Notes under the pieces: model-generated
What the model was told of the DNA's origin: nothing
The model's database searches: none
What the model saw: only the letters and a program-made list of their open reading frames with translations
Made by a program: the position numbers and the translations under genes
Shown here: positions 1,682 to 48,550 of the stretch, piece by piece
How the letters are laid out: every line of letters begins with the position of its first letter
Position numbering within the stretch: the first letter of the stretch is position 1
Assembly: GCA_022750455.1 (NCBI GenBank)
Contig: JAKIVR010000002.1
Location: 1,270 to 65,269, forward strand
Length of the DNA stretch: 64,000 nucleotides
Reading direction: 5' to 3'
DNA from: Thermoplasmata archaeon
Lineage (GTDB): Archaea > Thermoplasmatota > Thermoplasmata > Lutacidiplasmatales > UBA184

Positions 1682-1931
1682 GCGTCCGGGGCTTCCCTGG
1701 CGTTCGAGATAGGCAACCACTCGCTTCGAGGCGCAAAATCATCTGATGGACCGAGGGGCCGTAAACTCCCAGGAAGGCGGCGATCTCGTTCTCGGCCGGT
1801 GGGATGCGATGCACCTTCGTGTAGTAGTACACGTAGGCGACGAGTTGGCCCTGCTTTCGGGTCAACCGCCGTATCCCCCCCACGGTGCGCCCCTTCACCT
1901 GGGGAGAGGGATCTCGGCGTGCTGGACACAC
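1638..1931 (-). CDS. LexA-like winged-helix DNA-binding domain protein. The N-terminus has no canonical start and is likely truncated by the adjacent IS.
   Basis: IPPAENEIAAFLGVYGPSVHQMILRLEASGCLSR resembles the LexA N-terminal wHTH. It overlaps the IS630 transposase 3' end by 36 nt. Confidence 0.3.
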   Translation of the reverse strand: MCPARRDPSPQVKGRTVGGIRRLTRKQGQLVAYVYYYTKVHRIPPAENEIAAFLGVYGPSVHQMILRLEASGCLSRTPGKPRTLKILLTKAEVPELD

Positions 1932-3010
1932 CTCGCGAGGAAGTCAGGGTGGCCCTGGAGCCATCGGAGTTCTCGCTCCACGCCCTCTCGGATCTCCTCC
2001 TCACTCTTCGGACAGAAGTTGGGAAGACGTTGGTACTTCAGTGCGTTCCAGACCATCTCGTCCGGATTAAGTTCCGGGGCGTAGGCGGGGAACCGACGGG
2101 TCTTCAGCCGCTTCCGCATCTCCCACAGGAACGCCTTCACGTCCTTTCGACGGTGGATGGTCCCGTTGTCCCACAGGAGCAGGACCCTCCCGCGCACCTC
2201 CTTCAGAAGGTAACGCAGGAACTCGATGACACCACCCCCGTCGAAGTTCTTGTCCGTCTCGCTGAGACGGAAGTAGAGCTGCCCCCTCACTCCCACCGCA
2301 GAGATGAGGGAGATCTTCATCCGCTTCCCCTGACGGGTCTGGATCTCTGGGCGTTCCCCCTCGATCCACCATGTCCGACGGACGTTCGGCTCGGACTGGG
2401 CGGAGCTCTCGTCGAGGAAGAGGAGAGTGGCCCGGGTTCGACGGGCCTCCGTCACGATCCGGGGCCATTCGATCCTCCTCCAGTGCCGGATGTACTTCTC
2501 GTCCCGTTCGAAGGCGCGGGGGACGGGGACCTGGGCCGAGAGCCCCAAGTCCCGGAGGACATGCCACACCCCGGACTCGGTGTACTGCTCTCCGAACTCC
2601 GTCGCGATGACCTCCGCCACGCGCTTGAGGGTCCAGAGGTCGGTGGGGTAGCCGTGGGCCAAAGCCCCCTCGAGCAGGATCTCTCGTAGGCGCTTCCGTT
2701 GCTTCTCGTCGATCTTCCGCGGCCCGCCGGGGTGGTTCGCCTCTCTCCATGAACGGGGCCCCTGGGTGCGCTGGCGTTTCTCCCAAGCCCAGACCGTCTT
2801 GTACGCCACCTCCAAACGCCGAGCGATCTCGGCTTTGGGAACCCCGCGGCGGAGCCACCGGTAGGCGAGACGACGGCGCTCCTCTCGGGCAGAAACCGGG
2901 GACACGGGTCTTCGGTGGGAGCGGGGACGACGCCCCCGATGACCCCTTCGGTGAGCCATACCCACCGATAGCCTCAGCTAGATATTACTCTTATCATTCA
3001 AAGAGCAGTA
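1850..3010. mobile_element. IS630-family insertion sequence (boundaries approximate, TIRs not resolved)
   Basis: Intact transposase 1895..2965. An AT-rich flank at 2990-3060 contrasts with the ~68% GC background. Confidence 0.5.
1895..2965 (-). CDS. IS630-family (Tc1/mariner-like) transposase
   Basis: N-terminal HTH, DDE_3 core with LFLDESS, LLLWDNGTIHRRKD and the signature AYAPELNPDEMVWNALK. Confidence 0.85.
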   Translation of the reverse strand: MGMAHRRGHRGRRPRSHRRPVSPVSAREERRRLAYRWLRRGVPKAEIARRLEVAYKTVWAWEKRQRTQGPRSWREANHPGGPRKIDEKQRKRLREILLEGALAHGYPTDLWTLKRVAEVIATEFGEQYTESGVWHVLRDLGLSAQVPVPRAFERDEKYIRHWRRIEWPRIVTEARRTRATLLFLDESSAQSEPNVRRTWWIEGERPEIQTRQGKRMKISLISAVGVRGQLYFRLSETDKNFDGGGVIEFLRYLLKEVRGRVLLLWDNGTIHRRKDVKAFLWEMRKRLKTRRFPAYAPELNPDEMVWNALKYQRLPNFCPKSEEEIREGVERELRWLQGHPDFLARCVQHAEIPLPR

Positions 3011-4983: not shown

Positions 4984-6567
4984 GTGAAGCGACTCCGTAC
5001 CATCCGTCAACGGCCGAATCGCGCCACCGCGGCGCAGGTCAGCGCTGTCGCCACGATCCTCGGCCTCCTGCTGTTGTCGAGCTTTCTGGGAAATTTCTTC
5101 AACACGACCCTTCCCGCCGAGGAGGAGGAGCTGGAGTTCCAGCACGGCGTTCTGATCCAGAACCAGATGGCCGAGCTCCAGGCGACGATCTACAAGGAGG
5201 CGTCGAGCCCGCTGCCGTACAACCTCCCCACCCCGATCTCCCTCGGATCCGAGCCATACCCGCCGTTCGGTCTCTCGTCCCCCGGCAGCATCGCTCCCGC
5301 GGGCCCGGGGACCTCGGTCAATAGCACCTACACTCTCGTCTCCATCGACGGGAACTCCCCGGACTGGAACTTCGGGTCCCACTGCCTCTCGCCCGCCGGC
5401 AGCGGCACCTGTATCACCCCCGGCGTGACCAACAGCTGGAACTCGACCGCCAACGGCACCCGCTTCAACGTGATCATCGCTGCCTCCGCGTCGACGAACG
5501 GCCTCTACTACAACATCACCGGCCAGAACGACTCCCTGAACGTGACCTGGCTCGGCGCCACCGCGGGGCGCGTGGAGGTCGTGATCTACGGCTCGAACGA
5601 CACCGTCAACTTCACCATGAGCGGGCTTGACGCGAACTCCCCGATCCTTCAGTTCCTCTTCTACGGGCAGAACGACACCATCAACAGTTACATCACGACG
5701 GTCCACATCGGCGTCGGCGGCACGTCCGACCTCGTCCAGTTCGTCGGAGTTCACGAGCCGCTCTGTCCGCAGCTCAATCTCTCCGGGACCGATCGTCTCG
5801 GACACACGAACGTCACCGGACTGAACAGCAATGTGAAGTTCACCGTCTCGTGGTGGAACGCCATCGGACGCACCACCGCCCCCAACACGCTCCCGCTGGC
5901 GGGCGGAGGCAGCTCAGTGACGTTCCTCAACAACACCGGATTCATCGCGTGCGCCTTCACCAAGGCGTACCCGGAGAAGTACCTGATCCAGTACGAGTCC
6001 GGGATCCTGGTCCACCTCAACAACCGGTACGACCCGCCGACGGACATCGCCTACGATGACGGGGCCGTCATCCTCGCCCACCCCGGCCTCGGCTCGATCC
6101 TCCTTGACCAACCGAACTTGTTCGTGCGTCCGATCAATTCGCAGGCGGCCATGATCGTGAACGGGGCCGGTGGCCCGGTCTCGGTGTCCGGGTTCGACGC
6201 GAACTTCACCCTCGTCAGCCTCTTCGGGAACTACTCGCAAGAGGTCGGCGTCGGGACGGCCTCGGTGCTCACTCGGGTCATCGACTCCCACACGTACTCG
6301 GTCATCAACCTCCCGCCGAAGAACATCTACCTCGCTTCGTTCTGGCTCAACGTCACCACCCCGTACCCGAGCGCCTGGTCCTCGCTCTTCAGCACCTGGC
6401 CGGGCGCCGCGATCCCCGGGGGCTTCCACTGCACGACGACCGTCGTGATCGCGGCCCCGTACACCTGCCTCTTGCCGCCCCCGGGAGATTCGGTGACGCT
6501 GTCGGGGGAGATGCTCATCTCGGAGCTGAATCTGCAGACCGTCACGGTCGCCGTCTCCATCGCCTGA
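4984..6567 (+). CDS. cell-surface glycoprotein with N-terminal signal/TM anchor (S-layer or adhesin candidate)
   Basis: GTG start. Hydrophobic N-terminus AVATILGLLLLSSFLGNFF. More than 20 N-glycosylation sequons (NTT, NST, NGT, NIT, NVT, NFT, NDT...). Ser/Thr/Gly/Asn-rich beta-rich composition. Confidence 0.7.
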   Translation: MKRLRTIRQRPNRATAAQVSAVATILGLLLLSSFLGNFFNTTLPAEEEELEFQHGVLIQNQMAELQATIYKEASSPLPYNLPTPISLGSEPYPPFGLSSPGSIAPAGPGTSVNSTYTLVSIDGNSPDWNFGSHCLSPAGSGTCITPGVTNSWNSTANGTRFNVIIAASASTNGLYYNITGQNDSLNVTWLGATAGRVEVVIYGSNDTVNFTMSGLDANSPILQFLFYGQNDTINSYITTVHIGVGGTSDLVQFVGVHEPLCPQLNLSGTDRLGHTNVTGLNSNVKFTVSWWNAIGRTTAPNTLPLAGGGSSVTFLNNTGFIACAFTKAYPEKYLIQYESGILVHLNNRYDPPTDIAYDDGAVILAHPGLGSILLDQPNLFVRPINSQAAMIVNGAGGPVSVSGFDANFTLVSLFGNYSQEVGVGTASVLTRVIDSHTYSVINLPPKNIYLASFWLNVTTPYPSAWSSLFSTWPGAAIPGGFHCTTTVVIAAPYTCLLPPPGDSVTLSGEMLISELNLQTVTVAVSIA

Positions 6568-8227: not shown

Positions 8228-8566
8228 TCACTTGAAGTCGAAATAGCGCAGCAGCACCGAGCGGAACTCGGTGGGGGCGGTGATGCCGAGCTCCCGACCC
8301 TTCTCCCGGCCCTGGTCGACGAACAGGTACGTGGGGATGGAGTGGATCCCGAACGACTGGGAGACCTGGTTCGACTCGTCGACGTTCACCTTGGTGAACT
8401 TGACCCGGCCGAGGAACTTCTTGGAGAGGTCGAGCAGGATCGGTTCCGCGACCCGGCACGGGGCGCACCAGTCCGCGTAGAAGTCCACCACCACCGGGAG
8501 CTGGGAGTGGATCACCTCCGCTTCGAAGGTGCTGTCCGTCACATGGATCAGCGTGTCATCTGGCAT
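8228..8566 (-). CDS. trxA: thioredoxin
   Basis: WCAPC active site. ~112 aa from the internal ATG (MPDDTLIHVTDSTFEAEV). The ORF-track N-terminal extension was rejected. Confidence 0.85.
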   Translation of the reverse strand: MPDDTLIHVTDSTFEAEVIHSQLPVVVDFYADWCAPCRVAEPILLDLSKKFLGRVKFTKVNVDESNQVSQSFGIHSIPTYLFVDQGREKGRELGITAPTEFRSVLLRYFDFK

Positions 8567-8628
8567 GAAGAGGCCTGACGATTCGAGCGGGCGCCACCCT
8601 TTAACACTAGCCATCGTCGGGCACTCGG

Positions 8629-9729
8629 ATGGCGGAGAACCGCCGGCGCGTCTCCGAGGCCCGCCGGTTCGACGCCTCGAACGCTCTCCTCCATTGGTTC
8701 GAATCCCACCGTCGGGAGCTCCCGTGGAGGGAGAGCCGCGACCCGTACCGGGTCTGGATCGCCGAAGTTCTCCTGCAACAGACCCGCGTCGCCACCGCGG
8801 TCCGGTACTATGATCGGTTCCTCCGGCAGTTCCCCACGGTCCAGGCGCTCGCCCGGGCCTCCGAGGGGCAGGTGCTCAAGGCCTGGGAGGGCGCCGGATA
8901 CTATGGACGGGCCCGGAACCTCCGCCGGGCGGCCCAGGAGATCGTGCGCCGGCACGGAGGAAAGCTTCCCCAGGACGTGGAGGCACTCGAAGAACTACCG
9001 GGGTTCGGCCCGTATACCGCCGCGGCGGTCGGGAGTTTGGCGTTCGGCTTGCCGGTAGCCGCCCTCGAGGCGAACGGGATGCGAGTCCTCTCCCGGTACT
9101 TTGGCATCCGGGGGGACGTCACCCTCGCCCCGAACCAACGCCGGCTCCGGTCGGCCTTGCAAGGATGGGTCCACCAGGGTCCGAGCGGGCCAATGAACGA
9201 GGCGGTGATGGAGCTCGGCGAGACCGTCTGCGCCCCTCAGAGCCCCCGCTGCCCGGAGTGCCCCCTCGAGCGGGGATGCGTCCTGCGGAGGGAACGCTGG
9301 GACCCCCGGAGCGTGCCAGGCCGCCCACGAAAGCCGCCGGTCCCCCGCGTGTCGGCCTCGATCGCGATCATCGACCGCAACGGTCGCTGGTACGTGCAGC
9401 GCCGACCGGGGGAGGGTCTGCTCGGCGGCCTCTGGGAGTTCCCGGGGGGGAAGATCCAGCCGGACGAGAGCCCGATCGAAGCCTGCCGTCGGGAGGTCCG
9501 GGAGGAGACGGGGTGGACGCCGACACGGCTTCGCCTCCTCGGTACCGTCCAGCACGACTACACCCACCTCCACGTCACGTTGCATGTGTTTGGATCGCGC
9601 TGCGCCGCCTCCGCGCCCGGTCCCCGGACCGGTACGGGGCGCCGGTGGGTCGATCCGGCCACGTTCGCCCGACTTCCGATCCCCCGGGCCACGCAAAAAG
9701 CCTCCCAACTGATGTCGCACCATTTGTGA
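8629..9729 (+). CDS. mutY: A/G-specific adenine DNA glycosylase MutY (HhH-GPD + 4Fe-4S + NUDIX-like C-terminus)
   Basis: HhH-GPD block LPGFGPYTAAAV. CxxxxxxC...C..C cluster (CAPQSPRCPECPLERGC). NUDIX-like GGLWEFPGGK...REVREETG. Confidence 0.85.
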   Translation: MAENRRRVSEARRFDASNALLHWFESHRRELPWRESRDPYRVWIAEVLLQQTRVATAVRYYDRFLRQFPTVQALARASEGQVLKAWEGAGYYGRARNLRRAAQEIVRRHGGKLPQDVEALEELPGFGPYTAAAVGSLAFGLPVAALEANGMRVLSRYFGIRGDVTLAPNQRRLRSALQGWVHQGPSGPMNEAVMELGETVCAPQSPRCPECPLERGCVLRRERWDPRSVPGRPRKPPVPRVSASIAIIDRNGRWYVQRRPGEGLLGGLWEFPGGKIQPDESPIEACRREVREETGWTPTRLRLLGTVQHDYTHLHVTLHVFGSRCAASAPGPRTGTGRRWVDPATFARLPIPRATQKASQLMSHHL

Positions 9730-9973: not shown

Positions 9974-11506
9974 TCAGTTCGCAGGGCACTCTCGCTCGAC
10001 CCGCCGAACGAGCGATCCGGATCGGATCTCCGTCGCCACCCGATCGATCTCCCCGACCATCGCCCGATCCTCCCCGACCGGTGGCACGAGGGCCCGCAAC
10101 CCCTGGAGCGCCGCCTCGGAGCCGCGACCACCGGATCGGGGTCGGCGGAGCTCGAGGGCCTGGCCGGCGATCATCCACTCGATCGCGACCACCCGGGCGG
10201 CGTTCGCTTCGATTCGACGGAGCTTCGCCCCCGCCCACGCCCCTTGGCTGTTGAAATCCTCCTGGTTCGCCGAGGTCGGCAGGCTCATGGCGCTGGCCGG
10301 ATGCGCGAGGGTGGAGTTCTCCACGACCAACGCCGCCGCGACATAGGGTGGGATCATCCAACCCGACGTCAGCCCCGGCCGGGAGGCGAGGAACGGCGGG
10401 AGGCCCCGGTTCGTCGCCGGGTCGACGAGGCGGGCGCTCTGCCGCTCACTGAACGCGGCGAGGTGCTGGATCGCGAGAGCAAGGGTGTCGAGCGCGAGGG
10501 CCAGGGGCTGGCCGTGGAAGTTCCCCCCACTCAGAAACTCGTGTCCGTCGACGATGATCGGGTTGTCGCTGACGGCGTTCAGCTCCGCCTCCAAGATCTC
10601 GCCCGCGAAGTCGAGGGCGAGTTCTGTCGAGCCGTGGACCTGGGGGGCACACCGAAGAGTGTACGGGTCCTGGGATCGAGGGGACTGGGCAGGGGCGCAC
10701 AGGGTGCTGCCTTGGAGCCATCGGCGGAGGCGTTGGGCGGAGTGTCGCTGTCCTTCGGCGCCGCGGAGAGCTCCGATCCGGTCGTCCAACGGCTCCAACC
10801 CGCCTTCCAAGGCGTCCCACGCCATGGCGGTCCCGACCTCCGCGGAGGCGAGGAGGCACCGACCGTCCGCGACGCCGAGTGCGAGGTAGGCGGTCATCAG
10901 CGGCGTCCCGTTGAGCAGGGAGACCCCTTCCTTCTCTGCCAGCTGGAGCGCGGGGAGCTTCGCCGCCGCCAGCACCGCCGCCGCCGGGCGCGGGCTCCCG
11001 CCCTCGGGGTCCAGGAACGATCCTTCCCCGAGGAGCGCGAGGGCGAGGTGGGCCATCGGTACGAGGTCGCCCGACGCCCCCACCGAGCCCTGTTCGGGGA
11101 CCCAGGGGGTGATCTGGCGGTTGAGCATCTCCAGGAGTGCGTCGGCGACGGCTTCCCGGACGCCCGAGTGCCCCCGGGCGAACGTGTTCAGGCGGAGCAG
11201 CATCATCCCGCGCACGACCTCCTCCGGGAGGGCGGCGCCGGTCCCGCAGGCGTGGCTGCGGACGAGATTCAGCTGCAGGGCGCGGGCCTCTTCGGCCGGG
11301 ATCTTCCGGTCGGCGAGCGCTCCGAAGCCGGTGGTGACGCCGTAGATGGTGCGGCCTTCGCGGACCGCGCGGTCGATCGCCTCCCGCGCGCGGCGGATCG
11401 CTTCCCGCGCCGGCGGCGTCAGTTGGACGGCGCATCCGTGCCGTACGACGGCGAGGAACTGCTCCAGCGTGAGCGAGGTGCCGTCGATCGGCAGGCTCTC
11501 GGTCAC
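9974..11506 (-). CDS. hutH: histidine ammonia-lyase
   Basis: MIO-forming GASGDLVPMAHL motif. 510 aa with HAL/PAL family architecture. Confidence 0.9.
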   Translation of the reverse strand: MTESLPIDGTSLTLEQFLAVVRHGCAVQLTPPAREAIRRAREAIDRAVREGRTIYGVTTGFGALADRKIPAEEARALQLNLVRSHACGTGAALPEEVVRGMMLLRLNTFARGHSGVREAVADALLEMLNRQITPWVPEQGSVGASGDLVPMAHLALALLGEGSFLDPEGGSPRPAAAVLAAAKLPALQLAEKEGVSLLNGTPLMTAYLALGVADGRCLLASAEVGTAMAWDALEGGLEPLDDRIGALRGAEGQRHSAQRLRRWLQGSTLCAPAQSPRSQDPYTLRCAPQVHGSTELALDFAGEILEAELNAVSDNPIIVDGHEFLSGGNFHGQPLALALDTLALAIQHLAAFSERQSARLVDPATNRGLPPFLASRPGLTSGWMIPPYVAAALVVENSTLAHPASAMSLPTSANQEDFNSQGAWAGAKLRRIEANAARVVAIEWMIAGQALELRRPRSGGRGSEAALQGLRALVPPVGEDRAMVGEIDRVATEIRSGSLVRRVERECPAN

Positions 11507-11593
11507 GCCATCGTCCTTCGGGTCACGCGGGGGAGCGGAGCGTCGTTCGCGCCGCTCCCCCGCACCGAGCGACCCTCCCGTGCCGTGGACGGT

Positions 11594-12124
11594 TCAGGCG
11601 GTCGGTACGACGAGCTCTCCGCCGGCCTTGCTTCGGGACGGGACCTTCTGGGTCTTCACGTCCTTCGAGGTCCAGAACAGCTCGGCGACGTGGCCGACCT
11701 GGGTGAGCAGCTCCTGCGCGTCGGCGACGGCGGTTCCCTGGCGCGCCTTGGAGGCGGCCTTGAGCGCCTTGAAGAACGTCTCGTGCACCTGGGGGAACTT
11801 CGTCGCGAGCTCCGCGGTGAAGTAGTCGGCCCAGAGGATGCGCATCTCCTGCTTGCACCGCTCGGCGTGGAGCTCCTTGACCGAGGTGTACCGGGAGATC
11901 TGGGCGCTGTACTTCTCCCAGACGTCGGGGGTCGAGGCCGCTGCCGGTTTGGGCAGCTCGGCGATCAACTGGTCCATCCGCAGCACGGTGAGCGCCGAGA
12001 TCTGGGCCTCGTGAGGGTCATAAATCCCGCAGGGGATATCGCAGTGGGCATACACGGGGAGGGGAGGCCGAATCCCGTCACGTATCCGTCGGAAGACGCC
12101 GAGCGGCGAGCGCGCATCGAACAT
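11594..12124 (-). CDS. sodN: nickel superoxide dismutase precursor (Ni-hook HCDIPCGIYDP preceded by a 26-aa propeptide)
   Basis: N-terminal MFDARSPLGVFRRIRDGIRPPLPVYA then HCDIPCGIYDP, the NiSOD Ni-hook. ~150-aa mature four-helix protein. Confidence 0.85.
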   Translation of the reverse strand: MFDARSPLGVFRRIRDGIRPPLPVYAHCDIPCGIYDPHEAQISALTVLRMDQLIAELPKPAAASTPDVWEKYSAQISRYTSVKELHAERCKQEMRILWADYFTAELATKFPQVHETFFKALKAASKARQGTAVADAQELLTQVGHVAELFWTSKDVKTQKVPSRSKAGGELVVPTA

Positions 12125-12154
12125 GACCGCGCATACCGTGGGAGCGGCTTAAAG

Positions 12155-12610
12155 ATGCCGGCATCGGCGACCGTCGTCCCGCCGGGCGGGGCGAGCGACG
12201 GCGGCCGGCTCGCCCGATGGCTGCGTCGGCTTCGGAGCCGGCGCGTCGAGGTCGTCGAACGCAGCATGGAGCCGACGTTGTTCCCAGGCGATCGGTTGCT
12301 GGTGGAGCGCCACCCGTACCGGAACGAGCCTCTCGCCCGGGACCACATCGTGGTCGTGGAGGACCCCGAGCGCGCCCGGAGGTACCTCGTCAAACGGGTC
12401 GTCGCGCTCGAAGGGGAGATCCCTCCAGATGCGACCGCGCGGGTCCCGCCGGGACACGTCTGGCTCGCCGGGGATTGGCAGACCGTGAGCCGGGATAGTC
12501 GCAACTTCGGCGCCGTATCGACGGAGCGGATCTGGGGGCGGGTCTGGTACCGCTACTATCCCGCCGAGAACGCCGGTCCGATCGGCGGAGTCGCGTTCGT
12601 CCCGTCCTAG
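12155..12610 (+). CDS. sodX: SodX-like S26-family peptidase (NiSOD propeptide maturation protease)
   Basis: Divergent from sodN with 30 bp between start codons. S26 catalytic Ser motif RSMEPTLFPGD. C-terminal GDWQTVSRDSRNFG signal-peptidase box. The six-frame ORF is much longer; only the ATG-initiated 151-aa portion is credible. Confidence 0.7.
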   Translation: MPASATVVPPGGASDGGRLARWLRRLRSRRVEVVERSMEPTLFPGDRLLVERHPYRNEPLARDHIVVVEDPERARRYLVKRVVALEGEIPPDATARVPPGHVWLAGDWQTVSRDSRNFGAVSTERIWGRVWYRYYPAENAGPIGGVAFVPS

Positions 12611-13632
12611 GCACGCGGCGACCCGCCCGAGGGTCCGTCGGCCGTGAAGTCGACCCAGGTGCCCCGTCCGGCCGCCACGGCCCGGGTGAAGATGTACCTC
12701 GCCGCCGCGAGGTCCTCGACGGCGATCCCGACGGACTTGAACAGCGTCACCTCGTCGGGTTGAGTTCGCCCCTCGACCCGTCCGAGCAGCAACTCTCCGA
12801 GCTCGCCCCGGATGTGGCTGGAGGTGATGCTCCCTTCCTGGAGCGGGATCCGGTAGTCGTCGGCCTCGGCTTCGGCCGACGTGCGACGGTCCACGTAGAG
12901 GCGACTCCGGGCGACGAGGACGGAGTCCAGCTCCCGGCGTCCCGGGACCGCGGCCCCGACCGCATTGATGTGGGTCCCGGGTCGGACCGAGGCTCCGTGC
13001 AAGATCGGTGTGGGGGCGCCCGTCGTCGTGCAGATGATGTCGGCCTCTCGCACTGCATCCTCGACGGTAGGAACCGCTCGGATCGCCCCCGCGCCGAGCC
13101 CCCGCGCCGTCGCCTCTTGGACCAGCGCGGCGGAGCGCTCGGGCCGTCGATCCCAGATGCGGACCTCCGAGATCGATCGCACGAGCGGGATCGCGGCGAG
13201 GTGGGCGGCCGCCTGGGTCCCGGCGCCGAGGATCCCCAGCCGGTGGGCATCCGACCGGGCGAGGAGTCGGGTGGCGAGCGCGCTCACCGCCGCCGTTCGG
13301 ATCTCCGTGATGGAGGACGCCTCCAGAACGGCGAGAGCCGCCCCGCTCTCGCCGTCGAAGAGAAGCACGGCGCCGGGATGCGTCGGGGAGTCGCTTCCCG
13401 GTGCGTGCGGGAAGAGGGTGAACGCCTTCAGACCGATCGACGGCGGATGCGTCAAGAACGACGGCATCACGCAGAGCACCCCGCGATCGCCCGGAGCCGC
13501 CAGCACTGAGCGCAGCGGGAGCACCGCGCTTCCCTCCGCCAACGCCCGGAGCGCGCCCGCCATCACCTCGACGGCTTCGTCGGGGGGAAGGAGCTCCCGC
13601 ACCTCGCGCTCCCCCAAGACCAGGATCCGCAC
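12607..13632 (-). CDS. ornithine cyclodeaminase / mu-crystallin family protein
   Basis: Rossmann GAGTQAAAHL and an OCD-family fold over 341 aa. Stop overlaps the sodX stop by 4 nt (convergent). Confidence 0.8.
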   Translation of the reverse strand: MRILVLGEREVRELLPPDEAVEVMAGALRALAEGSAVLPLRSVLAAPGDRGVLCVMPSFLTHPPSIGLKAFTLFPHAPGSDSPTHPGAVLLFDGESGAALAVLEASSITEIRTAAVSALATRLLARSDAHRLGILGAGTQAAAHLAAIPLVRSISEVRIWDRRPERSAALVQEATARGLGAGAIRAVPTVEDAVREADIICTTTGAPTPILHGASVRPGTHINAVGAAVPGRRELDSVLVARSRLYVDRRTSAEAEADDYRIPLQEGSITSSHIRGELGELLLGRVEGRTQPDEVTLFKSVGIAVEDLAAARYIFTRAVAAGRGTWVDFTADGPSGGSPRA

Positions 13633-13707
13633 GGCCGCCTCCGGGTCCCGAAGACCTCGGTCCGTTTCTCCTCTCCGCTGCGCCGGTCGCCCCGGAACCA
13701 GCCGGGT

Positions 13708-14832
13708 TCAGAGGGCGTGGCGCACGGCCGTCGCCACGCGCCGGACCGTCGCAAGCGAGATCCCATTGCCCGACGGGAGGCTCAGTCCCTGGTTCCCGAG
13801 CCGGTCGGAGATCGGGAACGCCTTCGAGCGGCGCGTCGAGGCCGGGGCGAACGGTTGCCGGTGCATCGGCCAGAAGGCGACCCGAGATCCGATGCCCTGC
13901 TTCGCGAGCGCCTCCTGGACCAGTTGGCGCCGGGCCGGCCCCGCGTCGATCAGGATCGTGTTCACCCAGTAGGCGCTCCGGGCCCACGGGGCCTCTCCCT
14001 GGAGCGTAACTCCATCGATCCCCCCCAGCACCTCCTCGTACACTTTTCGACACTCGCGGCGGTGGCGGACGAACTGCTTCATCTTGCCGAGCTGGGCCAA
14101 TCCGACCGCGCACTGGAGGTCCGTGAGCCGGTAGTTGAAACCGACCTCCGTGTGGTGGTAGTTCCGGGAGGCGGAGGCGTACGCGAGCTCTCGGAGGGTT
14201 CCCATCCGCTCGGCGAGATCGGTCCGCCGCGTCACGACCATGCCGCCTTCCCCGGTCGTCAGGATCTTGTTCGCGTAGAAGCTGAAACAGCCCATGTCGC
14301 CCATCGCGCCGACACGGTGGCCGCGGAACTCGCTCCCGTGCGCCTCGGCGGCGTCCTCGACGATGCCGATGCGGTACTGGCGGCCGAGGCGGGCGAAGCG
14401 GTCCATCTCGGCCGGATGGCCGTAGATGTCGACCGGCATGACGGCGCGGGTCCGCGACGTGATCGCCGCTTCCGTCAGATCCGGATCGAGGGCCCAATGG
14501 CTCGGGTCGACGTCGACGAAGACCGGCGTCGCGCCGGTGTACAGCACCGCATCCAGGCAGGCGACCATCGTGGCATCGGGGAGGATCACTTCGTCCCCGG
14601 GTCCGACGCGGAGCGCGGCGAGCGCGAGGTGCAACGCCGCCGTCCCATTGGTGGTCGCGATGCCGTACTTTCCTCCGGCGTACCGACTGAACTTGGTCTC
14701 GAACTCGTCGACGAACGGCCCGTCGGACGTGATCCACCCGCCCCGCACGGCGCGGGCGACCAGCCGGCCTTCCTCGGGGCCGAAGCTCGGCGTGTACACC
14801 GGGATTCGGCGTGGGGGAACCCGAGAAGGCAT
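13708..14832 (-). CDS. DegT/DnrJ/EryC1/StrS-family PLP-dependent (sugar) aminotransferase
   Basis: Family blocks GWITSDGPFVDEFE, DEVILPDATMVA, IVEDAAEAHGS. Start chosen at the internal ATG (MPSRVPP). Confidence 0.8.
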   Translation of the reverse strand: MPSRVPPRRIPVYTPSFGPEEGRLVARAVRGGWITSDGPFVDEFETKFSRYAGGKYGIATTNGTAALHLALAALRVGPGDEVILPDATMVACLDAVLYTGATPVFVDVDPSHWALDPDLTEAAITSRTRAVMPVDIYGHPAEMDRFARLGRQYRIGIVEDAAEAHGSEFRGHRVGAMGDMGCFSFYANKILTTGEGGMVVTRRTDLAERMGTLRELAYASASRNYHHTEVGFNYRLTDLQCAVGLAQLGKMKQFVRHRRECRKVYEEVLGGIDGVTLQGEAPWARSAYWVNTILIDAGPARRQLVQEALAKQGIGSRVAFWPMHRQPFAPASTRRSKAFPISDRLGNQGLSLPSGNGISLATVRRVATAVRHAL

Positions 14833-14838
14833 GCGCGG

Positions 14839-14869
14839 CCGACCGAGTTCCCGTATTAAACTCGGTCGG
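14839..14869. promoter_or_regulatory. perfect 11-bp inverted repeat CCGACCGAGTT-n9-AACTCGGTCGG with AT-rich loop (GTATTAAA) in the degT / hpaB-like divergent promoter
   Basis: Read from sequence. It is 7 nt from the degT start codon and ~85 nt upstream of the hpaB-like start. Confidence 0.35.
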
Positions 14870-14954
14870 GGAATTTCCTCCGACACGCAAATGGGAGCGG
14901 CGGGGGAACCCGCCGCGGTCCGCCGGAGACGACGCGCGTTCCGGTTGGGAGAGG

Positions 14955-16385
14955 ATGATATGGGAGCGCCCGTTGCTCTCCGCCATGCGTAGTCGAGAGC
15001 AGTTCCTGGCGTCCCTGAACGACGGACGAGAGGCGTACTACCGGGGTCAGCGGGTCGATTCCATCGCTGAGCATCCGGTCCTGCGGATCGCGGCCGAGCA
15101 CGCCGCGAAATTGTACGACGTACCGAGGGAGCTCCGGGACCCGGCGCTCGGCCAGGACGTCAGCGGATACTTCGTTCTCCCCCGGAGCCCGGCCGAACTT
15201 CTGGCCCGCCACCGGCTCGTCTACGCGACTACGATGGCCTGTCACGGCGTGTTCAACATCTCCCAGGCGATCGGCAGCGACGCCCTCGCGGCGATGTCGG
15301 TCATCGCTCCGAAGATCGACCGAAAGCACGCCACGCCGTACGCCGCTCGCGTCGAGGCGTACCGCCGACGGGTGGCGACCGAGGACCTCACCCTCGCCCT
15401 CGCCCAGACCGACATGAAGGGGGACCGCCGTCGCCGTCCCCACGAGCAGCCGGACCCGGACATGTACGTCCACGTCACGGACGTTCGGCCCGAGGGGATC
15501 GTCGTCTCGGGCGCGAAGGCGCACACGACCCAGGCGGCCGTCTCCGACGAGATCGTCGTGATCCCGACGCGCGCCATGTCCGAGAAGGACGCCGACTTCG
15601 CGGTAGCGTTCGCAGTCCCGGCGGCGACGAAGGGGCTCACGTTCATCGTCCGACCGATCGAGGAGCTCGAGGGGAACGACCAGGCGATCCTCGCCCGGAG
15701 CGACTACGAATTCGAGACGATCACCATCTTCGACCAGGTGTTCGTCCCGTGGGAGCGCGTCTTCCTCTGTCGGGAGCATGAGTTCGCGGGGGCGGTCGCG
15801 ATCGGATTCGCGACGTACCATCGCTTCACCGCCGTCTCGTACCGGGCGGCGACCGCCAACCTCTACCTCGGAACGGCGAGCCTGGTCGCCCGCACGAACG
15901 GGATCTCCGAGGCGTCCCATGTGCGGGACAAGATGCTCCGTCTCGTGCTGTACAAGGAGGTGATGCGGATGAGCGCCCTCACGGCGGCCCAGTTCCCGTT
16001 GATGGACGAGGGTCAGGCGATCCCGAATCCGCTCTACACGAACATCGGCAAGTTGTACTCGAACCAGAACTTCTCGGGCGTCCTCGAGGCGCTCGTCGAT
16101 CTCTCCGGGGGGATCCTCGCCACCCTCCCCGCCCGATCGGACTTCGAGAATCCGGTCGAGGGGCCGTACCTCGCGAAGTACCTGGCGGCCGCCGAGGACG
16201 GACCGCGTCGGACGGAGGTGCTCCGTCTCGCGAAGGAGCTCGGCGTGAGCAGCTTTGCCGGCTATATGATGGCCCTGATGATCCACGCGGAGGGGTCCGT
16301 GGAGGCGAGCAAGATGGCGATCTTGCGCGACTATGATCTCACCGAGGCCGAGACGCTGGTCGAGGGGCTCCTGACCCCGAAGTGA
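14955..16385 (+). CDS. HpaB / 4-hydroxybutyryl-CoA dehydratase-family protein (flavin-dependent monooxygenase-like)
   Basis: Family-typical N-terminus REQFLASLNDGREAYYRGQRVDSIAEHPVLR. Only two Cys residues, so not an Fe-S 4-HB-CoA dehydratase. Start at ATG 14955 with gagaggatgatATG context. Confidence 0.7.
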   Translation: MIWERPLLSAMRSREQFLASLNDGREAYYRGQRVDSIAEHPVLRIAAEHAAKLYDVPRELRDPALGQDVSGYFVLPRSPAELLARHRLVYATTMACHGVFNISQAIGSDALAAMSVIAPKIDRKHATPYAARVEAYRRRVATEDLTLALAQTDMKGDRRRRPHEQPDPDMYVHVTDVRPEGIVVSGAKAHTTQAAVSDEIVVIPTRAMSEKDADFAVAFAVPAATKGLTFIVRPIEELEGNDQAILARSDYEFETITIFDQVFVPWERVFLCREHEFAGAVAIGFATYHRFTAVSYRAATANLYLGTASLVARTNGISEASHVRDKMLRLVLYKEVMRMSALTAAQFPLMDEGQAIPNPLYTNIGKLYSNQNFSGVLEALVDLSGGILATLPARSDFENPVEGPYLAKYLAAAEDGPRRTEVLRLAKELGVSSFAGYMMALMIHAEGSVEASKMAILRDYDLTEAETLVEGLLTPK

Positions 16386-16410
16386 TCCCGACGCCGGGCG
16401 GCGGCGGAGC

Positions 16411-17232
16411 TCACTTGGGGGGAGCGACCGGATCCTTGATCTGGGCGAGGAGCCGGTCCCACCCCGCGTACGCGCTCCACCCGCCGTCCACGGTGAGGTT
16501 CTCGCCGGTGACGTAGGCGGAGTCGGCCGAGGCGAGGAACAGCGCCACCTTGGCGATCTCTTCGCTCGTCCCGTACCGGCCCATCGGGGTCCGCCCGACG
16601 ATGTCGGACTCCGCGTAGTCGCCGACGGCCGCATCGTGGACGTCCATGTCGGTCTGGATGTACCCGGGCGAGAGGGTGTTCACGCGGATCCCGTACTGCG
16701 CCCACTCGGACGCCAACACCTTGGTGAGCCCCAAGAGGCCGTGCTTGGAGGCACAGTAGGCGGCTCGCTTCGGCAATCCCCCGAGCCCCAGAATCGAGGC
16801 GATGTTGAGGATCGATCCGCCGCCTCGCGTCACCATCGACCGGGCGGCGAGCTGCGACATGTAGAACGGGCCGGAGAGGTCGATCCCGAGGGTGCGCTCC
16901 CACTCTTTCGGAGTGAGCTCGAGGCTCGGCGCGACCATCGAGATCCCGGCGTTGTTCACGAGGATGTCGACGCCCTGGAACAGATCGATCGAGCGGCCGA
17001 CGATGCGTTCGCAGTCAGCATACGACCCGACGTCCCCGGGGGCGCCTCCGACCTGTCCGGTCTTCGCGTCGGTGCCGAGGCGTTCGACCGTCGCCTCCAC
17101 CTCCGCCGGTTTTCGCGAGTTGATCACGACCCGGGCCCCGTGCGCCAAGAAGATCCGGGCGATCTCGTATCCGATCCCCTTGGTGGACCCAGTGACGATC
17201 GCGACACGCCCTTCCAGCCTCGGCTCGGTCAC
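16411..17232 (-). CDS. short-chain dehydrogenase/reductase (SDR)
   Basis: TGSTKGIG, NNAG and YCASK motifs. GTG start overlaps the upstream stop (GTGA). Confidence 0.8.
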   Translation of the reverse strand: MTEPRLEGRVAIVTGSTKGIGYEIARIFLAHGARVVINSRKPAEVEATVERLGTDAKTGQVGGAPGDVGSYADCERIVGRSIDLFQGVDILVNNAGISMVAPSLELTPKEWERTLGIDLSGPFYMSQLAARSMVTRGGGSILNIASILGLGGLPKRAAYCASKHGLLGLTKVLASEWAQYGIRVNTLSPGYIQTDMDVHDAAVGDYAESDIVGRTPMGRYGTSEEIAKVALFLASADSAYVTGENLTVDGGWSAYAGWDRLLAQIKDPVAPPK

Positions 17233-18329
17233 CGAAACTCTCCCCGCGTCCGGAGCGCCTTCGCCTTGGCGACCTCCGCGATGCGGGTCTCGGCGAGCCG
17301 ATCGGCGGCGCGGAACGACGGGATATGTTCCTTCTCGGCGAGATCGAAGACGCGCTGGGTCGTCTCCGAGATGCGGTGGACCTTCGCCAGCGCGCGCTCG
17401 TGGAGGTGGGACCCTCCGAACAGACGATCCGAATCGTACACCGCGCCCCCGGCGTTGATGATGTAATCGGGGGCGTACACGATCCCCCGCTTCTCGATCG
17501 CTGCGCCGTCGTCCTCGGTCCGAAGCTGATTGTTCGCCGACCCGGCCACCACCTTGCACTGAAGAGCGGGGATCGTCGTCGCGTTGAGGATCCCGCCGAG
17601 GGCGCACGGCGAGAAGACGTCCATCGGCGTCTGATAGATGTCCTCGGGAGCGACGACCTTCACCGACCGACCGACCTGGACTGCCGCGACCCGGCTCGCA
17701 TCCGCGTCGCAGACCACCAGCTTGGCGCCGAGCGTCTCCAACTGCGGCACGATCTCCGAGCCGACAGCGCCCAGGCCCTGGACGCCGACGGTGAGGCCGT
17801 TCAGCGAATCGGAGCCGGTCGCGCGGCGCACTGCGACGCGCATGCCGTGGATGACGCCGGTCGCCGTCACCCCGCCGATGGGGCCCGCCCCTCCGAGGTA
17901 CTGGGGAAGGGTGATCATGAACCGGGTCTCCTTGTGCATATCCTCCATGTCGCGGAGCGTCGTGCCCACATCCTCCCCGGAGTAGTACATCCCGCCGAGC
18001 CTCTCGATGAACCGGCCGAGCGACCGGAACAGCGCCTCAGACTTGTCCTTCTTGGGATCCCCGATGATGACGACCTTTCCGCCGCCGAGGTCGACGTTCG
18101 CCGCGGCGTACTTGTACGTCATCCCCCGGGCGAGGCGCATCGCATCTTCGGCAGCCTCCCACTCGGAGGCATAGGTCCACATCCGGCAGCCGCCACCGGC
18201 CGGGCCTAACGTCGTGTCGTGGATCGCGATGATCGCGCGCAATCCGGTCGACGTGTCATTGCAGAAGACGAGGTTCTCGTAGTCGTAGTGGCGAAGGTAG
18301 TCCAGGATCGGGTACGTGGTCGTCGCCAT
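17229..18329 (-). CDS. Glu/Leu/Phe/Val dehydrogenase family (leucine-dehydrogenase-sized, 367 aa)
   Basis: MATTTYPILDYL... GGGKVVIIGDP and a C-terminal Rossmann GLGAVGSE. The ORF-track 150-aa N-terminal extension was rejected. Confidence 0.8.
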   Translation of the reverse strand: MATTTYPILDYLRHYDYENLVFCNDTSTGLRAIIAIHDTTLGPAGGGCRMWTYASEWEAAEDAMRLARGMTYKYAAANVDLGGGKVVIIGDPKKDKSEALFRSLGRFIERLGGMYYSGEDVGTTLRDMEDMHKETRFMITLPQYLGGAGPIGGVTATGVIHGMRVAVRRATGSDSLNGLTVGVQGLGAVGSEIVPQLETLGAKLVVCDADASRVAAVQVGRSVKVVAPEDIYQTPMDVFSPCALGGILNATTIPALQCKVVAGSANNQLRTEDDGAAIEKRGIVYAPDYIINAGGAVYDSDRLFGGSHLHERALAKVHRISETTQRVFDLAEKEHIPSFRAADRLAETRIAEVAKAKALRTRGEFR

Positions 18330-18504
18330 TGCATTCCTAGGCGATTCGTAACGGGGACTTGACTTACTGTTTTCGCGCGACCGACCGGGCCGGGTGAGGG
18401 GACTCAGGCGAGAGTCCAGGGAGCACCGACCGGTCGCCGGCCGACCAGCGCCCCCAAGAACTCCCCGGACACGGTTATGGCGCGAGCGCTCCATCGCTCC
18501 GCCG

Positions 18505-18921
18505 ATGGGGGGGTACTCCGGCACGCCGCTGGCGAAAAAGCTGGGCTTTCGAGCTGGCGCCCGCGTCGTCCTCCTCGGCGTGCCGCAAGAGGTGAAGGAC
18601 GAGCTGGCCAACGAATTGGCCCACTGCCGGCGCGTGGAGCGAACGGGGGATGCGATCGATCTCGCCATGATCTTCGCCCCGAGGGCCGCGAGCCTCAACG
18701 CCCCATTCGCCCGGTGTTCCCAGCGGCTCGCTCCGGCGGGCATGCTCTGGATCTGTTGGTTGAAGAGGCGCTCCGGCAAGACGACCGACCTGGACGAGGC
18801 GACAGTTCGAGCTTACGGATCGAACGCGGGGCTGGTCGACGTCAAGGTCTGCGCGGTGAGCGAGACCTGGTCGGGCTTGAAGTTCGTCGTTCGGCTCCGA
18901 GACCGCCCGAATCGGAGGTGA
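18505..18921 (+). CDS. DUF3052-like hypothetical protein
   Basis: MGGYSGTPLAKKLGF N-terminus typical of DUF3052, as recalled from memory. Confidence 0.45.
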   Translation: MGGYSGTPLAKKLGFRAGARVVLLGVPQEVKDELANELAHCRRVERTGDAIDLAMIFAPRAASLNAPFARCSQRLAPAGMLWICWLKRRSGKTTDLDEATVRAYGSNAGLVDVKVCAVSETWSGLKFVVRLRDRPNRR

Positions 18922-18927
18922 GGGATC

Positions 18928-19785
18928 ATGTCACGAACGTGGACGATCGGTCTAGCGACGATGTCGGCCCTCGCGGATCTGCATCCCGACGACCTCCCGT
19001 TGGTCCCGGCGTTCCGCGATATCGGGATCGAGGCTCGTCCAGTGATCTGGAACGGCCCCCCGGGCTCCTGGGACGGACTCGACGTTTGCTTGATCCGGTC
19101 GACCTGGGACTACTTTCAGCATCTGCCGGAGTTCCTGGGCTGGCTGCGACAGCTCGCCGCGGCCGGGACCCGGGTGTGGAATCCGATCCCGCTGGTCGAA
19201 TGGAACAGCGACAAGTCGTACCTGAAGGATCTCGAACGCCAAGGGATCCCGATCGTCCCTACCGTGCTCCCAGGACCGGGCGAATCCCTCGAACAGATCC
19301 TCGATCGAGAGGGTTGGGACCGCGCGGTGTTCAAGCCGTCGGTCTCGGGAGGATCGTGGCGGACCCACGCCGTCGAACGTCGCTCCCTCCCGACGATGGA
19401 GACGATCTTCCGCGAGCTCCGTGACGAGCGGACGGTCCTCGTCCAACCGTACATGGCGCAGGTGGAGACGACGGGCGAGCGCTCGCTCATCTTTCTCGGC
19501 GGGGAGTTCTCTCACGCCGTGCTGCGAGCGGCCTCGCTGGCCCCCGAGGTACCCATCGCCGAGGGCGCGCCGTTCGCTCCTTCCGATGCCGAGCAAGCGT
19601 TCGGACGGCGCGTGCTCTCGCTCTTGGAGAGCCCGCCGCTGTACGCCCGCGTCGACTACGTCGCCGATGCGGAGGGAGTCCCTCGGCTCATGGAGCTCGA
19701 GCTCATCGAGCCGCGGTTGTTCTTCCCGTCCCACCCGGCAAGCGCCAACCGTCTCGCGGAACTAGTCTGGGGCGAGCTGAGGTAG
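18928..19785 (+). CDS. ATP-grasp domain protein (RimK / glutathione-synthetase-like ligase)
   Basis: ATP-grasp-like central and C-terminal blocks (VFKPSVSGGS, LVQPYM, ELELIEPRLF). ggaggtgagggatcATG start context. Confidence 0.6.
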   Translation: MSRTWTIGLATMSALADLHPDDLPLVPAFRDIGIEARPVIWNGPPGSWDGLDVCLIRSTWDYFQHLPEFLGWLRQLAAAGTRVWNPIPLVEWNSDKSYLKDLERQGIPIVPTVLPGPGESLEQILDREGWDRAVFKPSVSGGSWRTHAVERRSLPTMETIFRELRDERTVLVQPYMAQVETTGERSLIFLGGEFSHAVLRAASLAPEVPIAEGAPFAPSDAEQAFGRRVLSLLESPPLYARVDYVADAEGVPRLMELELIEPRLFFPSHPASANRLAELVWGELR

Positions 19786-19821: not shown

Positions 19822-20805
19822 CTACTCGCGGATCCCGTCCGGGGTGACCGAGAAGACGGCTTCGCCTTCCGGCAGGTTCGGCGAGTCGATCAGCCGGGCG
19901 ATGCGCCGTGGAGGCTTCGACTTGCGCAGGTAGATCCGGTAGGTGGAGGCGTGGGCGACGATGTTGCCGCCAATCGGGCGCGTCGGGTCGCCGAACATGA
20001 TGTCCGGGCGCGCCGAGACCTGGTTCGTCACGATCACCGAGGCGTTGTACATGTCGGCGAAGCGGAGCAGCTCGTGGAGATGCTTGTTCAGGTGCTGCTG
20101 CCGCGGAGCGAGCTCGGCCCGGCCCGCGTACTCCGACCGAAAGTGGGCCGTCAGCGAGTCGACGACGATCACGCGGATCGGCTTCACCCGTGCGAGCTCC
20201 TGGGCCTTCGCCACGAGGAGCATCTGGTGGCTGGAGTTGAACGCCCGGGCGACGTGGATGTGGCCGAGGGCGACGTCCGGGTCGAGACCCACAGCGGTCG
20301 CCATGGAGACGATCCGCTCGGGGCGGAACGTCGACTCGGTATCGATGTAGACGGTCTCACCGGAGAGGCCTCCTTGGTCGACCGGGAGCTGGACGGAGAC
20401 GGCGAGCTGGTGGGCGATCTGCGTCTTGCCGCTGCCGAACTCGCCCGCGAACTCGGTGATCGCCTGGGTCTCGACGCCGCCGCCGAGCAGCTCGTCGAGA
20501 GATTTCGCGTAGGTCGTGATGCGGCCGAGCTTCTTCCGGCGCTCGAGCACGGTGACGCCGCTCTCAAAGCTCCCGACGTCGGCCTCGCGCCGAGCGGAGG
20601 CGATGATGTGCTGGGCGATCTGCGTGCCGATCTCGGCCGCCTCGGCGACGTCCCCAGGCGAGGCGACGGCGAGCTCCATCAGATCGGTGAAGCCGGCGTC
20701 CCGGAGCTTCTGCGCGGTCGTCGGTCCGACGCCATCGAGGTCCTCGAGGGCGATCTCCTTCTTCGGTTCCGGTTCTGCCGGTCGAGTGGCGGCTTTGGCG
20801 GGCAC
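19822..20805 (-). CDS. radA: DNA repair and recombination protein RadA
   Basis: N-terminal HhH ([20 protein letters not shown]). Walker [10 protein letters not shown]. RecA/Rad51 core. GTG start 58 nt downstream of the purC stop; the upstream Arg-rich extension was rejected. Confidence 0.9.
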
Positions 20806-20863
20806 GGTCGACCGAGCCGAGGGGGCGGTATAAGGGTGCGGCCGCGGACGGTAGGTGAAACGC

Positions 20864-21823
20864 CTACGTCGAGGAGTGATGCGACAGGAACCGCTCGCCG
20901 GTGAGGCGCTGGTACACCGTGGTGTACAACCGGCTGACCTCATCGACCAACAGCGGCGGGAGCGGCGGGATCGGCGGCTCCTGGGCGCCGGTGGCCCGCG
21001 CCTTGGTCAACTGGTCGAAGTACCCGGTGCTGCGATAGTGTTGCCGGACGAACTCCTTGGAGAACTCCACGTACCGGCCCCGCTCGAACGCCCCCTTGTC
21101 CCAGAACCGGTCCTCGTCGGCCGTCCCGAACGTGTCGACGACCATGGGCTGCCCCGCCTCATCGATGGCGAACTCCTTCTTGCCGTCGACGTGGATGAGC
21201 CCGCGCGGCTCGATCGCGGTCGCCATGGCGGCGTCGATGGCGAGGATCATCCCCTTGATCTGGTCGATCTGGGACTGGTCGAGGCAGGCGAGGGCGAGCG
21301 CCTCGGGCCACTCGAGCGGACGGTCGATCGCCTCGAGCTTGGTGGTGACCTCGAAGTACGGGGCGGGAAGGAGGGCGCCGTACTCGGTCGTGTGTCCGGC
21401 CGGGAATCCGATCTGTTCGCTCGTCACGGTCCCGTCCTTGATCCGGTCCCAGAGGGAGCCGGCGACGTAGTAGCGGACGATGAACTCGAGCGGGACGAGG
21501 TACCCCTTCGGCTTCGGGCCGAGCGTCGCCGGCTTCGGTACGACCTTGACGCGCTTCACCCGCATGGAGGTCGGGCCAGAGAGGCCGAGGTAGTGGCTGC
21601 GGATCCCGAGCTTGCCGCAGACATCGAACCAGTGGGCCGCGGTCCGGGTCAGCGTCTCCCCCTTGAACGGGATCTCGGTCGGGATGTGCTTGTCGAAGAC
21701 GGAGATGTCGTTCGTGAATCGGAACTCGAGCTCGGTCGGAGAGACCTCCCAGACCTCCTTCACCTTGCCCCGGCGGAGGTACTTGAGCCCCTGACTACCG
21801 GCGGCCGGCACGTTCGCTGGCAT
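20864..21823 (-). CDS. purC: phosphoribosylaminoimidazole-succinocarboxamide (SAICAR) synthase
   Basis: Long-form SAICAR synthetase family similarity over 319 aa ([13 protein letters not shown]...). Confidence 0.9.
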
Positions 21824-39132: not shown

Positions 39133-39537
39133 CTACGCGGTCGGGGGCGATGATGGCGCGGTCCCGGCGTCGGCGGCCGGCTTCGAACCCCCGCCCCGGG
39201 GCTTCTTCGGGGGCTTGGGAGCGGCGGGCGCCGGGGCGGCCGGGGTCTCCGCGACGCGCTCGGGTTTCGGTGCCGGGGCCGCCGGCGCCGGCTTCGGGGC
39301 CGGAGCGGCGCCGGGCGCCGCGGCCGCGCGCGCGGCGTTCGACGCCGTCTGGGCCCGGCGGAGGGCGTGCGCCCGGGTCCACTTCATTCGGTGGCCCACG
39401 CGTCCGAGCACGAGCTGCTGCTTGCGGCACGAGCTGGAGCAGAAGTGGAAGACGCTGCCGTCCTTCTTGACGAACATGAGCCCGGTGCCGGGCTCGATCT
39501 CGTCGGCGCAGAACGAACACTGGCGCTTGATCACCAT
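39133..39537 (-). CDS. rpl24e: 50S ribosomal protein L24e with ~70-aa Ala/Pro-rich C-terminal extension
   Basis: MVIKRQCSFCADEIEPGTGLMFVKKDGSVFHFCSSSCRK zinc-ribbon core, then AAAPGAAPAPKPAPAAPAPKP... Confidence 0.85.
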   Translation of the reverse strand: MVIKRQCSFCADEIEPGTGLMFVKKDGSVFHFCSSSCRKQQLVLGRVGHRMKWTRAHALRRAQTASNAARAAAAPGAAPAPKPAPAAPAPKPERVAETPAAPAPAAPKPPKKPRGGGSKPAADAGTAPSSPPTA

Positions 39538-48211: not shown

Positions 48212-48233
48212 CCGCCTCCCCGATGGAGCGCTT

Positions 48234-48550
48234 GCTAGGCTTGACCGGGGGGTTGGGCGTCCCCTTTTACACCGAAACCGTCCTCAGCGGGGGTGACAGG
48301 CAGGAGCGGCGTCCGAGAGAGAGTACCGTCTCGTTTGGTCTCGTCGAAGCTCTGTTCCATCGGGCCGCGGGTCTCGCGATGGACGCCCGGAGGGGCGTTC
48401 TAGCGGGTATTCATCACGGACATCGGGCGAGGTCCTGACGGGAGCAGCCTTACCGTGACCCGTCGACGCTGGTGGGGCGACGGGGCTGAGAGACTGGCGA
48501 GAACAACGGTGCCCTTCTTCGGCCGTCCACCCTGCTGGCCTAGCACGCCG
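48234..48550 (+). ncRNA. candidate signal recognition particle RNA (7S / SRP RNA), ~310 nt
   Basis: 5' GCUAGGC (48234-40) pairs with GCCUAGC (48538-44). Helix-6-like hairpin GACGCCC-GGAG-GGGCGUU. Helix-8-like GGUCCUGACGGGAGCAGCC resembling the conserved GGUCCGGAAGGAAGCAGCC. Lies in a 560-bp gene-free stretch. Confidence 0.5.

Follow-up and report, generated by a model that had tools for sequence, protein, structure and literature searches.

The nickel superoxide dismutase (NiSOD) of Streptomyces coelicolor and Streptomyces seoulensis (SodN; structures 1T6U and 1Q0D) is made as a precursor whose mature chain opens with the motif H-C-D-x-P-C-G-x-Y. Removal of the leader by the peptidase SodX frees His1 as the N-terminus, and the hook then binds nickel. 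A locus of this kind lies in a 64-kb stretch of contig JAKIVR010000002.1 from a Thermoplasmata archaeon (the whole stretch analysed, hereafter the window). It consists of sodN (11594..12124, minus strand, stop codon included), encoding a NiSOD precursor of 176 aa, and of a divergent gene for a SodX-like S26 Ser/Lys peptidase of 151 aa (12155..12610, plus strand). Sutherland et al. (2021; bioRxiv 10.1101/2021.01.12.426412) reported NiSOD from 26 genomes of archaea and inferred multiple transfers from bacteria, a 2022 paper lists Ni-SOD as a stress-resistance trait of Candidatus (Ca.) Lutacidiplasmatales (PMC9287336), the enzyme of Marine Group II archaea was treated at length in 2023 (PMC10783094), and NCBI already names homologues ‘superoxide dismutase, Ni [Thermoplasmata archaeon]’. 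The novelty in archaea that an initial annotation of this DNA had implied was therefore overtaken by the 2021 and 2022 reports, and the window locus represents a known system in its ordinary form: it belongs to the same gene family and the same archaeal class as the published archaeal NiSODs, and six related loci come from metagenome-assembled genomes (MAGs) of the Lutacidiplasmatales paper. It is in our view highly probable that the two genes make up a working NiSOD module, that the host is a high-GC Thermoplasmata archaeon from soil, similar to Ca. Lutacidiplasmatales, and that processing and origin are as proposed below.

The SodN precursor, which starts with MFDARSPLGVFRRIRDGIRPPLPVYA and continues with HCDIPCGIYDPHEAQ, scores 133.9 bits on the Pfam family Sod_Ni (PF09055; cut-off 25 bits) and 143.3 bits on the sodN equivalog model TIGR02753 (cut-off 90 bits). 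Alignment to the Streptomyces enzyme (E ~5e-17, with only ~31% identity) sets His27 opposite the mature His1, and the hook HCDIPCGIY at residues 27–35 (12020..12046, minus strand), which holds the His1, Cys2 and Cys6 ligands together with Pro5 and Tyr9, pairs residue for residue with HCDLPCGVY, residues 1–9 of the solved NiSODs 1Q0D and 1T6U. Beyond the hook ligands, Y9, W59, D61 and Y62 of Streptomyces NiSOD find identical counterparts in Y35, W98, D100 and Y101. A SodN scan with one genome per GTDB species recovered 219 relatives, and the counts given for relatives throughout use the best 80 of these 219. The hook string HCDIPCGIYDPHEA is the same in the window and in 80/80 of these related loci, so that the Ni-hook behind a propeptide, which the initial annotation had read from the translation, is borne out by profile scores, by alignment and by invariance alike. 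At 56–66% identity to the best 80 species representatives, the window protein is a fairly distant member among its archaeal relatives. Residue H86 is invariant across the archaeal clade.

An AlphaFold model of SodN, built from 50 relatives (mean pLDDT 83.5), predicts for the mature chain of 150 aa (11597..12046, minus strand) a four-helix bundle with helices at residues 38–56, 66–101, 113–129 and 133–153, followed by strands at 158–162 and 170–174. The hook region is modelled with low confidence, as expected because the model contains no metal. When compared with the PDB at E <= 0.001, the model gave 16 significant matches, all of them NiSOD chains (TM-score 0.89–0.94, normalised to target), and no non-NiSOD family was matched at that threshold. 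The predicted fold is thus the right-handed four-helix-bundle subunit of NiSOD. Two features set the window protein apart from its Streptomyces counterpart: 13 residues are inserted between helices 1 and 2, and the C-terminus is extended by a β-hairpin tail of 22 residues.

The propeptide covers residues 1–26 (12047..12124, minus strand), as delimited by leader length and conserved residues, and ends in V-Y-A directly before His27; the Streptomyces leader has 14 aa. In most of the 80 relatives the start ATG lies exactly 26 codons before His1, and in a few 22–23 codons before it. The residue at position −1 is an invariant Ala and that at −3 is usually Val or Ala, while D16, P20, P21 and V24 of the leader are nearly invariant. 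An amphipathic helix is predicted by AlphaFold at residues 7–18. A reading of the leader as a Sec signal peptide was rejected on composition, since it is charged and has no hydrophobic core. The conserved Ala at −1 and the usual Val or Ala at −3, which recall the small residues at the same positions of the Streptomyces cleavage site, agree with a putative cut just before His1 by the neighbouring peptidase.

This peptidase displays the S26 boxes SMEPT with Ser37 (12263..12265, plus strand), KR with Lys80 (12392..12394, plus strand) and GDWQTVSRDSR, all of which align to solved signal peptidases; SM.P, KR and RDSR.FG are kept across the 75 orthologues of the conservation alignment, and K80, R81, D114, S115 and R116 are invariant in alignment A2. 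ATG 12155 is the sole in-frame start codon upstream of the catalytic Ser. The protein scores 77.4 bits on Peptidase_S26 (cut-off 22.9 bits) and 86.3 bits on the bacterial signal peptidase I model TIGR02227 (cut-off 47 bits), and it gave no match to the archaeal Sec11-type signal peptidase model TIGR02228 at E <= 0.01. No membrane segment was detected in it: its 19-residue Kyte–Doolittle means peak at 0.29, and those of the orthologues at 1.33. It shares with the type I signal peptidases LepB and SipS (S26A) the catalytic boxes SMxPT, KR and GDNxxxSxDSR, but differs from them in having neither a membrane anchor nor the long KR–GD box insertion of the membrane-bound enzymes (alignment A2), and in having one cytoplasmic protein as its presumed substrate. 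The initial annotation had gone further and identified the gene, 30 bp from sodN and with its SMEPT motif, as SodX itself. The divergent S26 gene is there as described, and the context and motifs, that is the catalytic boxes, the adjacency to sodN and the solubility, are those of SodX, as in Streptomyces, where an S26-type Ser/Lys peptidase also adjoins sodN; the dedicated model TIGR02754, however, gives 43.3 bits against a cut-off of 63.25. Because this cut-off is missed, we leave the protein outside TIGR02754 and call it a SodX-like S26 peptidase, which very probably has the function of SodX.

The same two genes recur as a unit in related genomes. In 79/80 relatives sodN has the S26 gene next to it in divergent orientation, and the 80th locus begins inside sodN. 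Nearly all of the 80 are titled ‘Thermoplasmata archaeon’ and three bear other titles; all 80 come from soil and peat and share an archaeal synteny, whose backbone runs from malic enzyme, purC and radA through the divergent S26–sodN pair and hutH to mutY, trx and purH. Among the 80 related loci, hutH stands directly 3′ of sodN in 68, and radA (57), mutY (54), trx (47), purC (47) and purH (28) are found less often; the contigs carrying the pair reach 1.8 Mb. Codon use in the two genes is indistinguishable from that in the rest of the window: a codon adaptation index-like value of 0.730 for sodN and 0.676 for the peptidase compares with 0.721 +/- 0.058 for the window genes, and the G+C content at third codon positions (GC3) is 0.90 and 0.86, against 0.88 +/- 0.035. 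Synteny and codon use together point to an old and resident pair, not a recent patch, as had been supposed at the outset. The trx (8228..8614) and mutY (8629..9729) genes of the window had also been taken as signs of an oxidative-damage theme; both are present, but they amount to conserved synteny, and no functional link was seen. One locus with the archaeal order S26–sodN–hutH–mutY–trx (L059; DAIDCO010000016.1) is titled ‘bacterium isolate clean3188’ and is probably a mislabelled Thermoplasmata MAG.

The wider ancestry of the pair was approached through a library clustered at 50% identity, in which the closest representatives from clusters other than that of the query were examined. The first of these, P0148 (51% identity), is archaeal, with the same synteny and an adjacent, divergent S26 gene. 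The second, P0149 (locus L082; 53% identity), comes from a genome with a bacterial L10–L7/L12 operon and has a divergent S26 gene 184 bp upstream; its host was assigned indirectly, by an ALAD that is closest to named Chloroflexota/Dehalococcoidia proteins. The third, P0151 (P0151/P0315 in locus L084; 48% identity), carries the NCBI label Chloroflexota, and its S26 gene lies co-directionally 3′ of sodN. At 48–53% identity and in the same length class (172 aa), these two long NiSODs share with the window protein the 13-residue insertion and a C-terminal tail (PS..GGE.V.P), both absent from Streptomyces, as well as a leader, in the two of 22–23 aa, whose final Ala precedes HCDIPCGIYDP, and an adjacent S26 gene, divergent in L082 as in the window. 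They differ in their bacterial hosts, in the 184-bp spacer of L082 and in the co-directional arrangement of L084, whose compact peptidase of 105 aa passes TIGR02754 at 92.6 bits whereas the archaeal ones fail. As judged from these alignments, the nearest non-archaeal NiSOD relatives are of the Chloroflexota type. In a rough neighbour-joining tree the archaeal sequences group first, followed by P0149 and P0151; because this tree is weak, our claim is limited to nearest relatives and does not extend to a resolved topology. The result agrees with the published bacterial-to-archaeal transfer, which has the NiSOD clades of archaea nested inside clades dominated by Chloroflexota and Actinobacteriota (bioRxiv 10.1101/2021.01.12.426412). 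The pair would then have come from Chloroflexota-type bacteria, would have arrived before the known members of the archaeal lineage diverged, and would have passed on vertically ever since, at a single fixed position in the chromosome.

The two start codons are separated by a spacer of only 30 bp (12125..12154), and its layout is conserved. When the 80 genomes are taken together with the window, the start codon of the peptidase falls at positions −33 to −31 relative to sodN in 70 cases (ATG 40, TTG 18, GTG 12). Apart from this codon, strong conservation in the spacer is confined to a TATA-like A/T box at sodN −29 to −25, TTTAA in the window (12149..12153, minus strand) and YTTAT as a consensus, recognized by its conservation in the 80 genomes (T 94% at −28, T 96% at −27, A 90% at −26 and T 81% at −25); the flanking spacer positions reach 40–60% only, and the surrounding DNA has ~70% G+C. 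Its distance to the ATG suits an archaeal TATA box for a leaderless sodN mRNA and makes it a candidate promoter element. Here the locus departs from Streptomyces, the archaeal host having a TATA-like box where the bacteria have their own type of promoter. The control of NiSOD by Nur and a small RNA, described in PMC3919588, is not expected for this locus. The box touches the peptidase start codon and therefore cannot serve a transcript containing that codon. No second conserved A/T box at the distance required for a leaderless peptidase mRNA was found in the spacers of the 80 relatives and the window, and the peptidase promoter may lie inside the propeptide-coding region of sodN. The conserved 30-bp spacer lends itself to simple tests of divergent promoters in archaea.

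A more elaborate reading would join the spacer to the peptidase: the archaeal peptidases would be a SodX branch of their own, scoring below the threshold and evolved in step with the longer, conserved helical propeptide, the single TATA-like box would abut the protease start codon while the protease promoter sits within the sequence coding for the propeptide, and the rigid 30-bp spacer would force the 5′ ends of the two transcripts to overlap, coupling the expression of enzyme and maturase through transcriptional interference or antisense pairing. We regard this combination as unlikely; if true, such a coupled head-to-head control would be a layout undescribed for NiSOD.

The simpler account that we favour, a two-gene NiSOD module of the known kind, would work as follows. 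The sodN gene, whose mRNA is probably leaderless and driven by an archaeal TATA box 25–29 nt upstream of the ATG, would give an inactive precursor of 176 aa. The neighbouring soluble S26 peptidase would use its Ser37/Lys80 dyad to cut after Ala26, between the A and H of V-Y-A-H, and His27 would become the free N-terminus once the leader is removed. The amine and the axial imidazole of His27, the amide and thiolate of Cys28 and the thiolate of Cys32 would come together as the Ni-hook and hold Ni(II/III), and cycling between Ni(II) and Ni(III) would dismutate superoxide in the four-helix-bundle subunit, presumably within a hexamer, as in Streptomyces.

Several observations weigh against this account. 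The shortfall of the window peptidase on the SodX model is shared by the archaeal orthologues tested, which score 36–54 bits on TIGR02754. In the SodN alignment, Streptomyces E17 and R47, which we take to be the hydrogen-bond partners of His1, stand opposite S43 and H86. Among the open reading frames (ORFs) of the 64-kb window no nickel transporter was seen, and the literature searched held no cleavage, nickel or activity data for an archaeal NiSOD. As to origin, strict monophyly of 19 hand-picked archaeal SodNs had a bootstrap of ~0 in the crude neighbour-joining tree, because the unlabelled representatives P0148, P0150 and P0155 fall among the archaeal sequences; of these, P0148 is archaeal by synteny.

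The profile scores give some room to the view that sodN has no more than a chance neighbour in the S26 peptidase, a protease of general or unrelated function, and that the precursor is matured otherwise or autocatalytically. The protein falls below the SodX cut-off and does better on the signal peptidase I model (86.3 against 43.3 bits), and NCBI calls the identical protein (P0121) just ‘S26 family signal peptidase [Thermoplasmata archaeon]’. A chance neighbour would, however, hardly be adjacent and divergent in 79/80 species genomes, with the 30-bp spacing of start codons in 70/80. Nor does the protein behave as a general signal peptidase: it has no membrane anchor, unlike the true signal peptidases in the same alignment, and does not match the archaeal model TIGR02228. 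The Ala at −1 and the usual Val or Ala at −3 before His1 agree with S26 specificity, and in the bacterial relatives, too, sodN is accompanied by an S26 gene, whose product in one case scores above the SodX cut-off. An unrelated protease is thus very unlikely.

Membership of the protease in the signal peptidase family, together with an Ala-X-Ala-like cleavage site, could also suggest that the leader is an export signal and that a secreted or surface NiSOD is processed by signal peptidase. The leader MFDARSPLGVFRRIRDGIRPPLPVYA, charged, devoid of a hydrophobic core and predicted to form an amphipathic helix, does not look like such a signal, and the peptidase has no transmembrane segment and therefore cannot act at the outer face of the membrane, which makes export highly improbable. 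A recent horizontal origin of the pair, or a fault of assembly or binning that joined bacterial DNA to an archaeal contig, is extremely improbable. Such a view could point to the bacterial type of the two genes, to an IS630 transposase at a distance of 9 kb and to a 7-kb block beside the peptidase that relatives lack, but the pair keeps the same backbone position in 79/80 related genomes on contigs of up to 1.8 Mb, has native codon use and GC3 and a conserved archaeal-type TATA-like box upstream, and is flanked on both sides by archaeal markers in one contiguous window. Cleavage of SodN by its divergent neighbour within a long-resident module remains the reading that we prefer.

What the locus may add to the published record concerns the protease. 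The words sodX and peptidase are absent from the main text of bioRxiv 10.1101/2021.01.12.426412 and of PMC10783094 and from passages of PMC9287336, and a literature search found no paper joining NiSOD, Thermoplasmat- and protease. The constant pairing of sodN with a protease gene and the layout of the spacer may thus be undescribed, as expected corollaries of a known system. They indicate that a metalloenzyme of bacteria can enter archaea along with the protease dedicated to it, and that both can then stay fixed for long. They also suggest that the NCBI SodX model under-calls the archaeal protease, and these genomes therefore appear to have NiSOD without a maturase. The locus further supports an aerobic, nickel-requiring lifestyle of this acid-soil lineage, which the literature has already proposed; beyond annotation, its significance is slight.

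The archaeal nature of the host, likewise part of the initial annotation, is upheld by several markers in the window: an Archaea_SRP RNA (48233..48545, 151.7 bits), RadA (19822..20943, 490 bits), FtsZ, an L7Ae–S28e–L24e–NDK cluster and an archaeal-type TyrRS. The RadA is 83% identical to that of the Lutacidiplasmatales MAG AcS5-58, and six of the SodN relatives are Ca. Lutacidiplasmatales MAGs (AcS13-54, AcS1-3, AcS5-58, AcS4-93, AcS5-107 and SubAcS15-31), a group described in PMC9287336 as having 67–71% GC and coming from acid soils. By these comparisons, the host is a high-GC soil archaeon of the Thermoplasmata that resembles Ca. Lutacidiplasmatales. No second superoxide dismutase was seen among the ORFs of the 64-kb window.

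Directly downstream of sodN, 87 nt 3′ of it and on the same strand, lies hutH (9974..11506, minus strand), which encodes a histidine ammonia-lyase (TIGR01225, 575.8 bits). Between the sodN stop and the hutH start, a 16-nt-arm inverted repeat with 94% complementarity (11527..11563) forms a hairpin with a predicted RNA fold of −51.8 kcal/mol (z = −2.8). It was rejected as a conserved element, the equivalent regions in the 80 relatives having a median z of −0.08, and is specific to the window.

On the other side of the pair, the interval between the peptidase gene and radA (12607..19785) holds five genes, for an ornithine cyclodeaminase/mu-crystallin, a DegT/LegC-like aminotransferase, an HpaB-like flavin monooxygenase, a ScyB-like amino-acid dehydrogenase and a DcsG-like ATP-grasp protein. 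All five are without a match across the 80 related loci, in which the distance from the peptidase to radA and purC is no more than 5 kb. The interval looks like a 7-kb lineage-specific insertion with native-like codon use, and is possibly a small biosynthetic cluster. Elsewhere in the window, an IS630-family transposase (1895..2965, minus strand; 186 bits) has the lowest codon-adaptation value among the window genes tested (0.589). Four long ORFs of 473–921 aa with coding-like GC3 (4984..6567, 26130..27551, 50795..53560 and 54212..56821) had no Pfam match at the thresholds used. The ribosomal protein L24e (39133..39537, minus strand) is 134 aa long; its family model spans residues 5–54, and the remainder is an Ala/Pro/Lys-rich tail.

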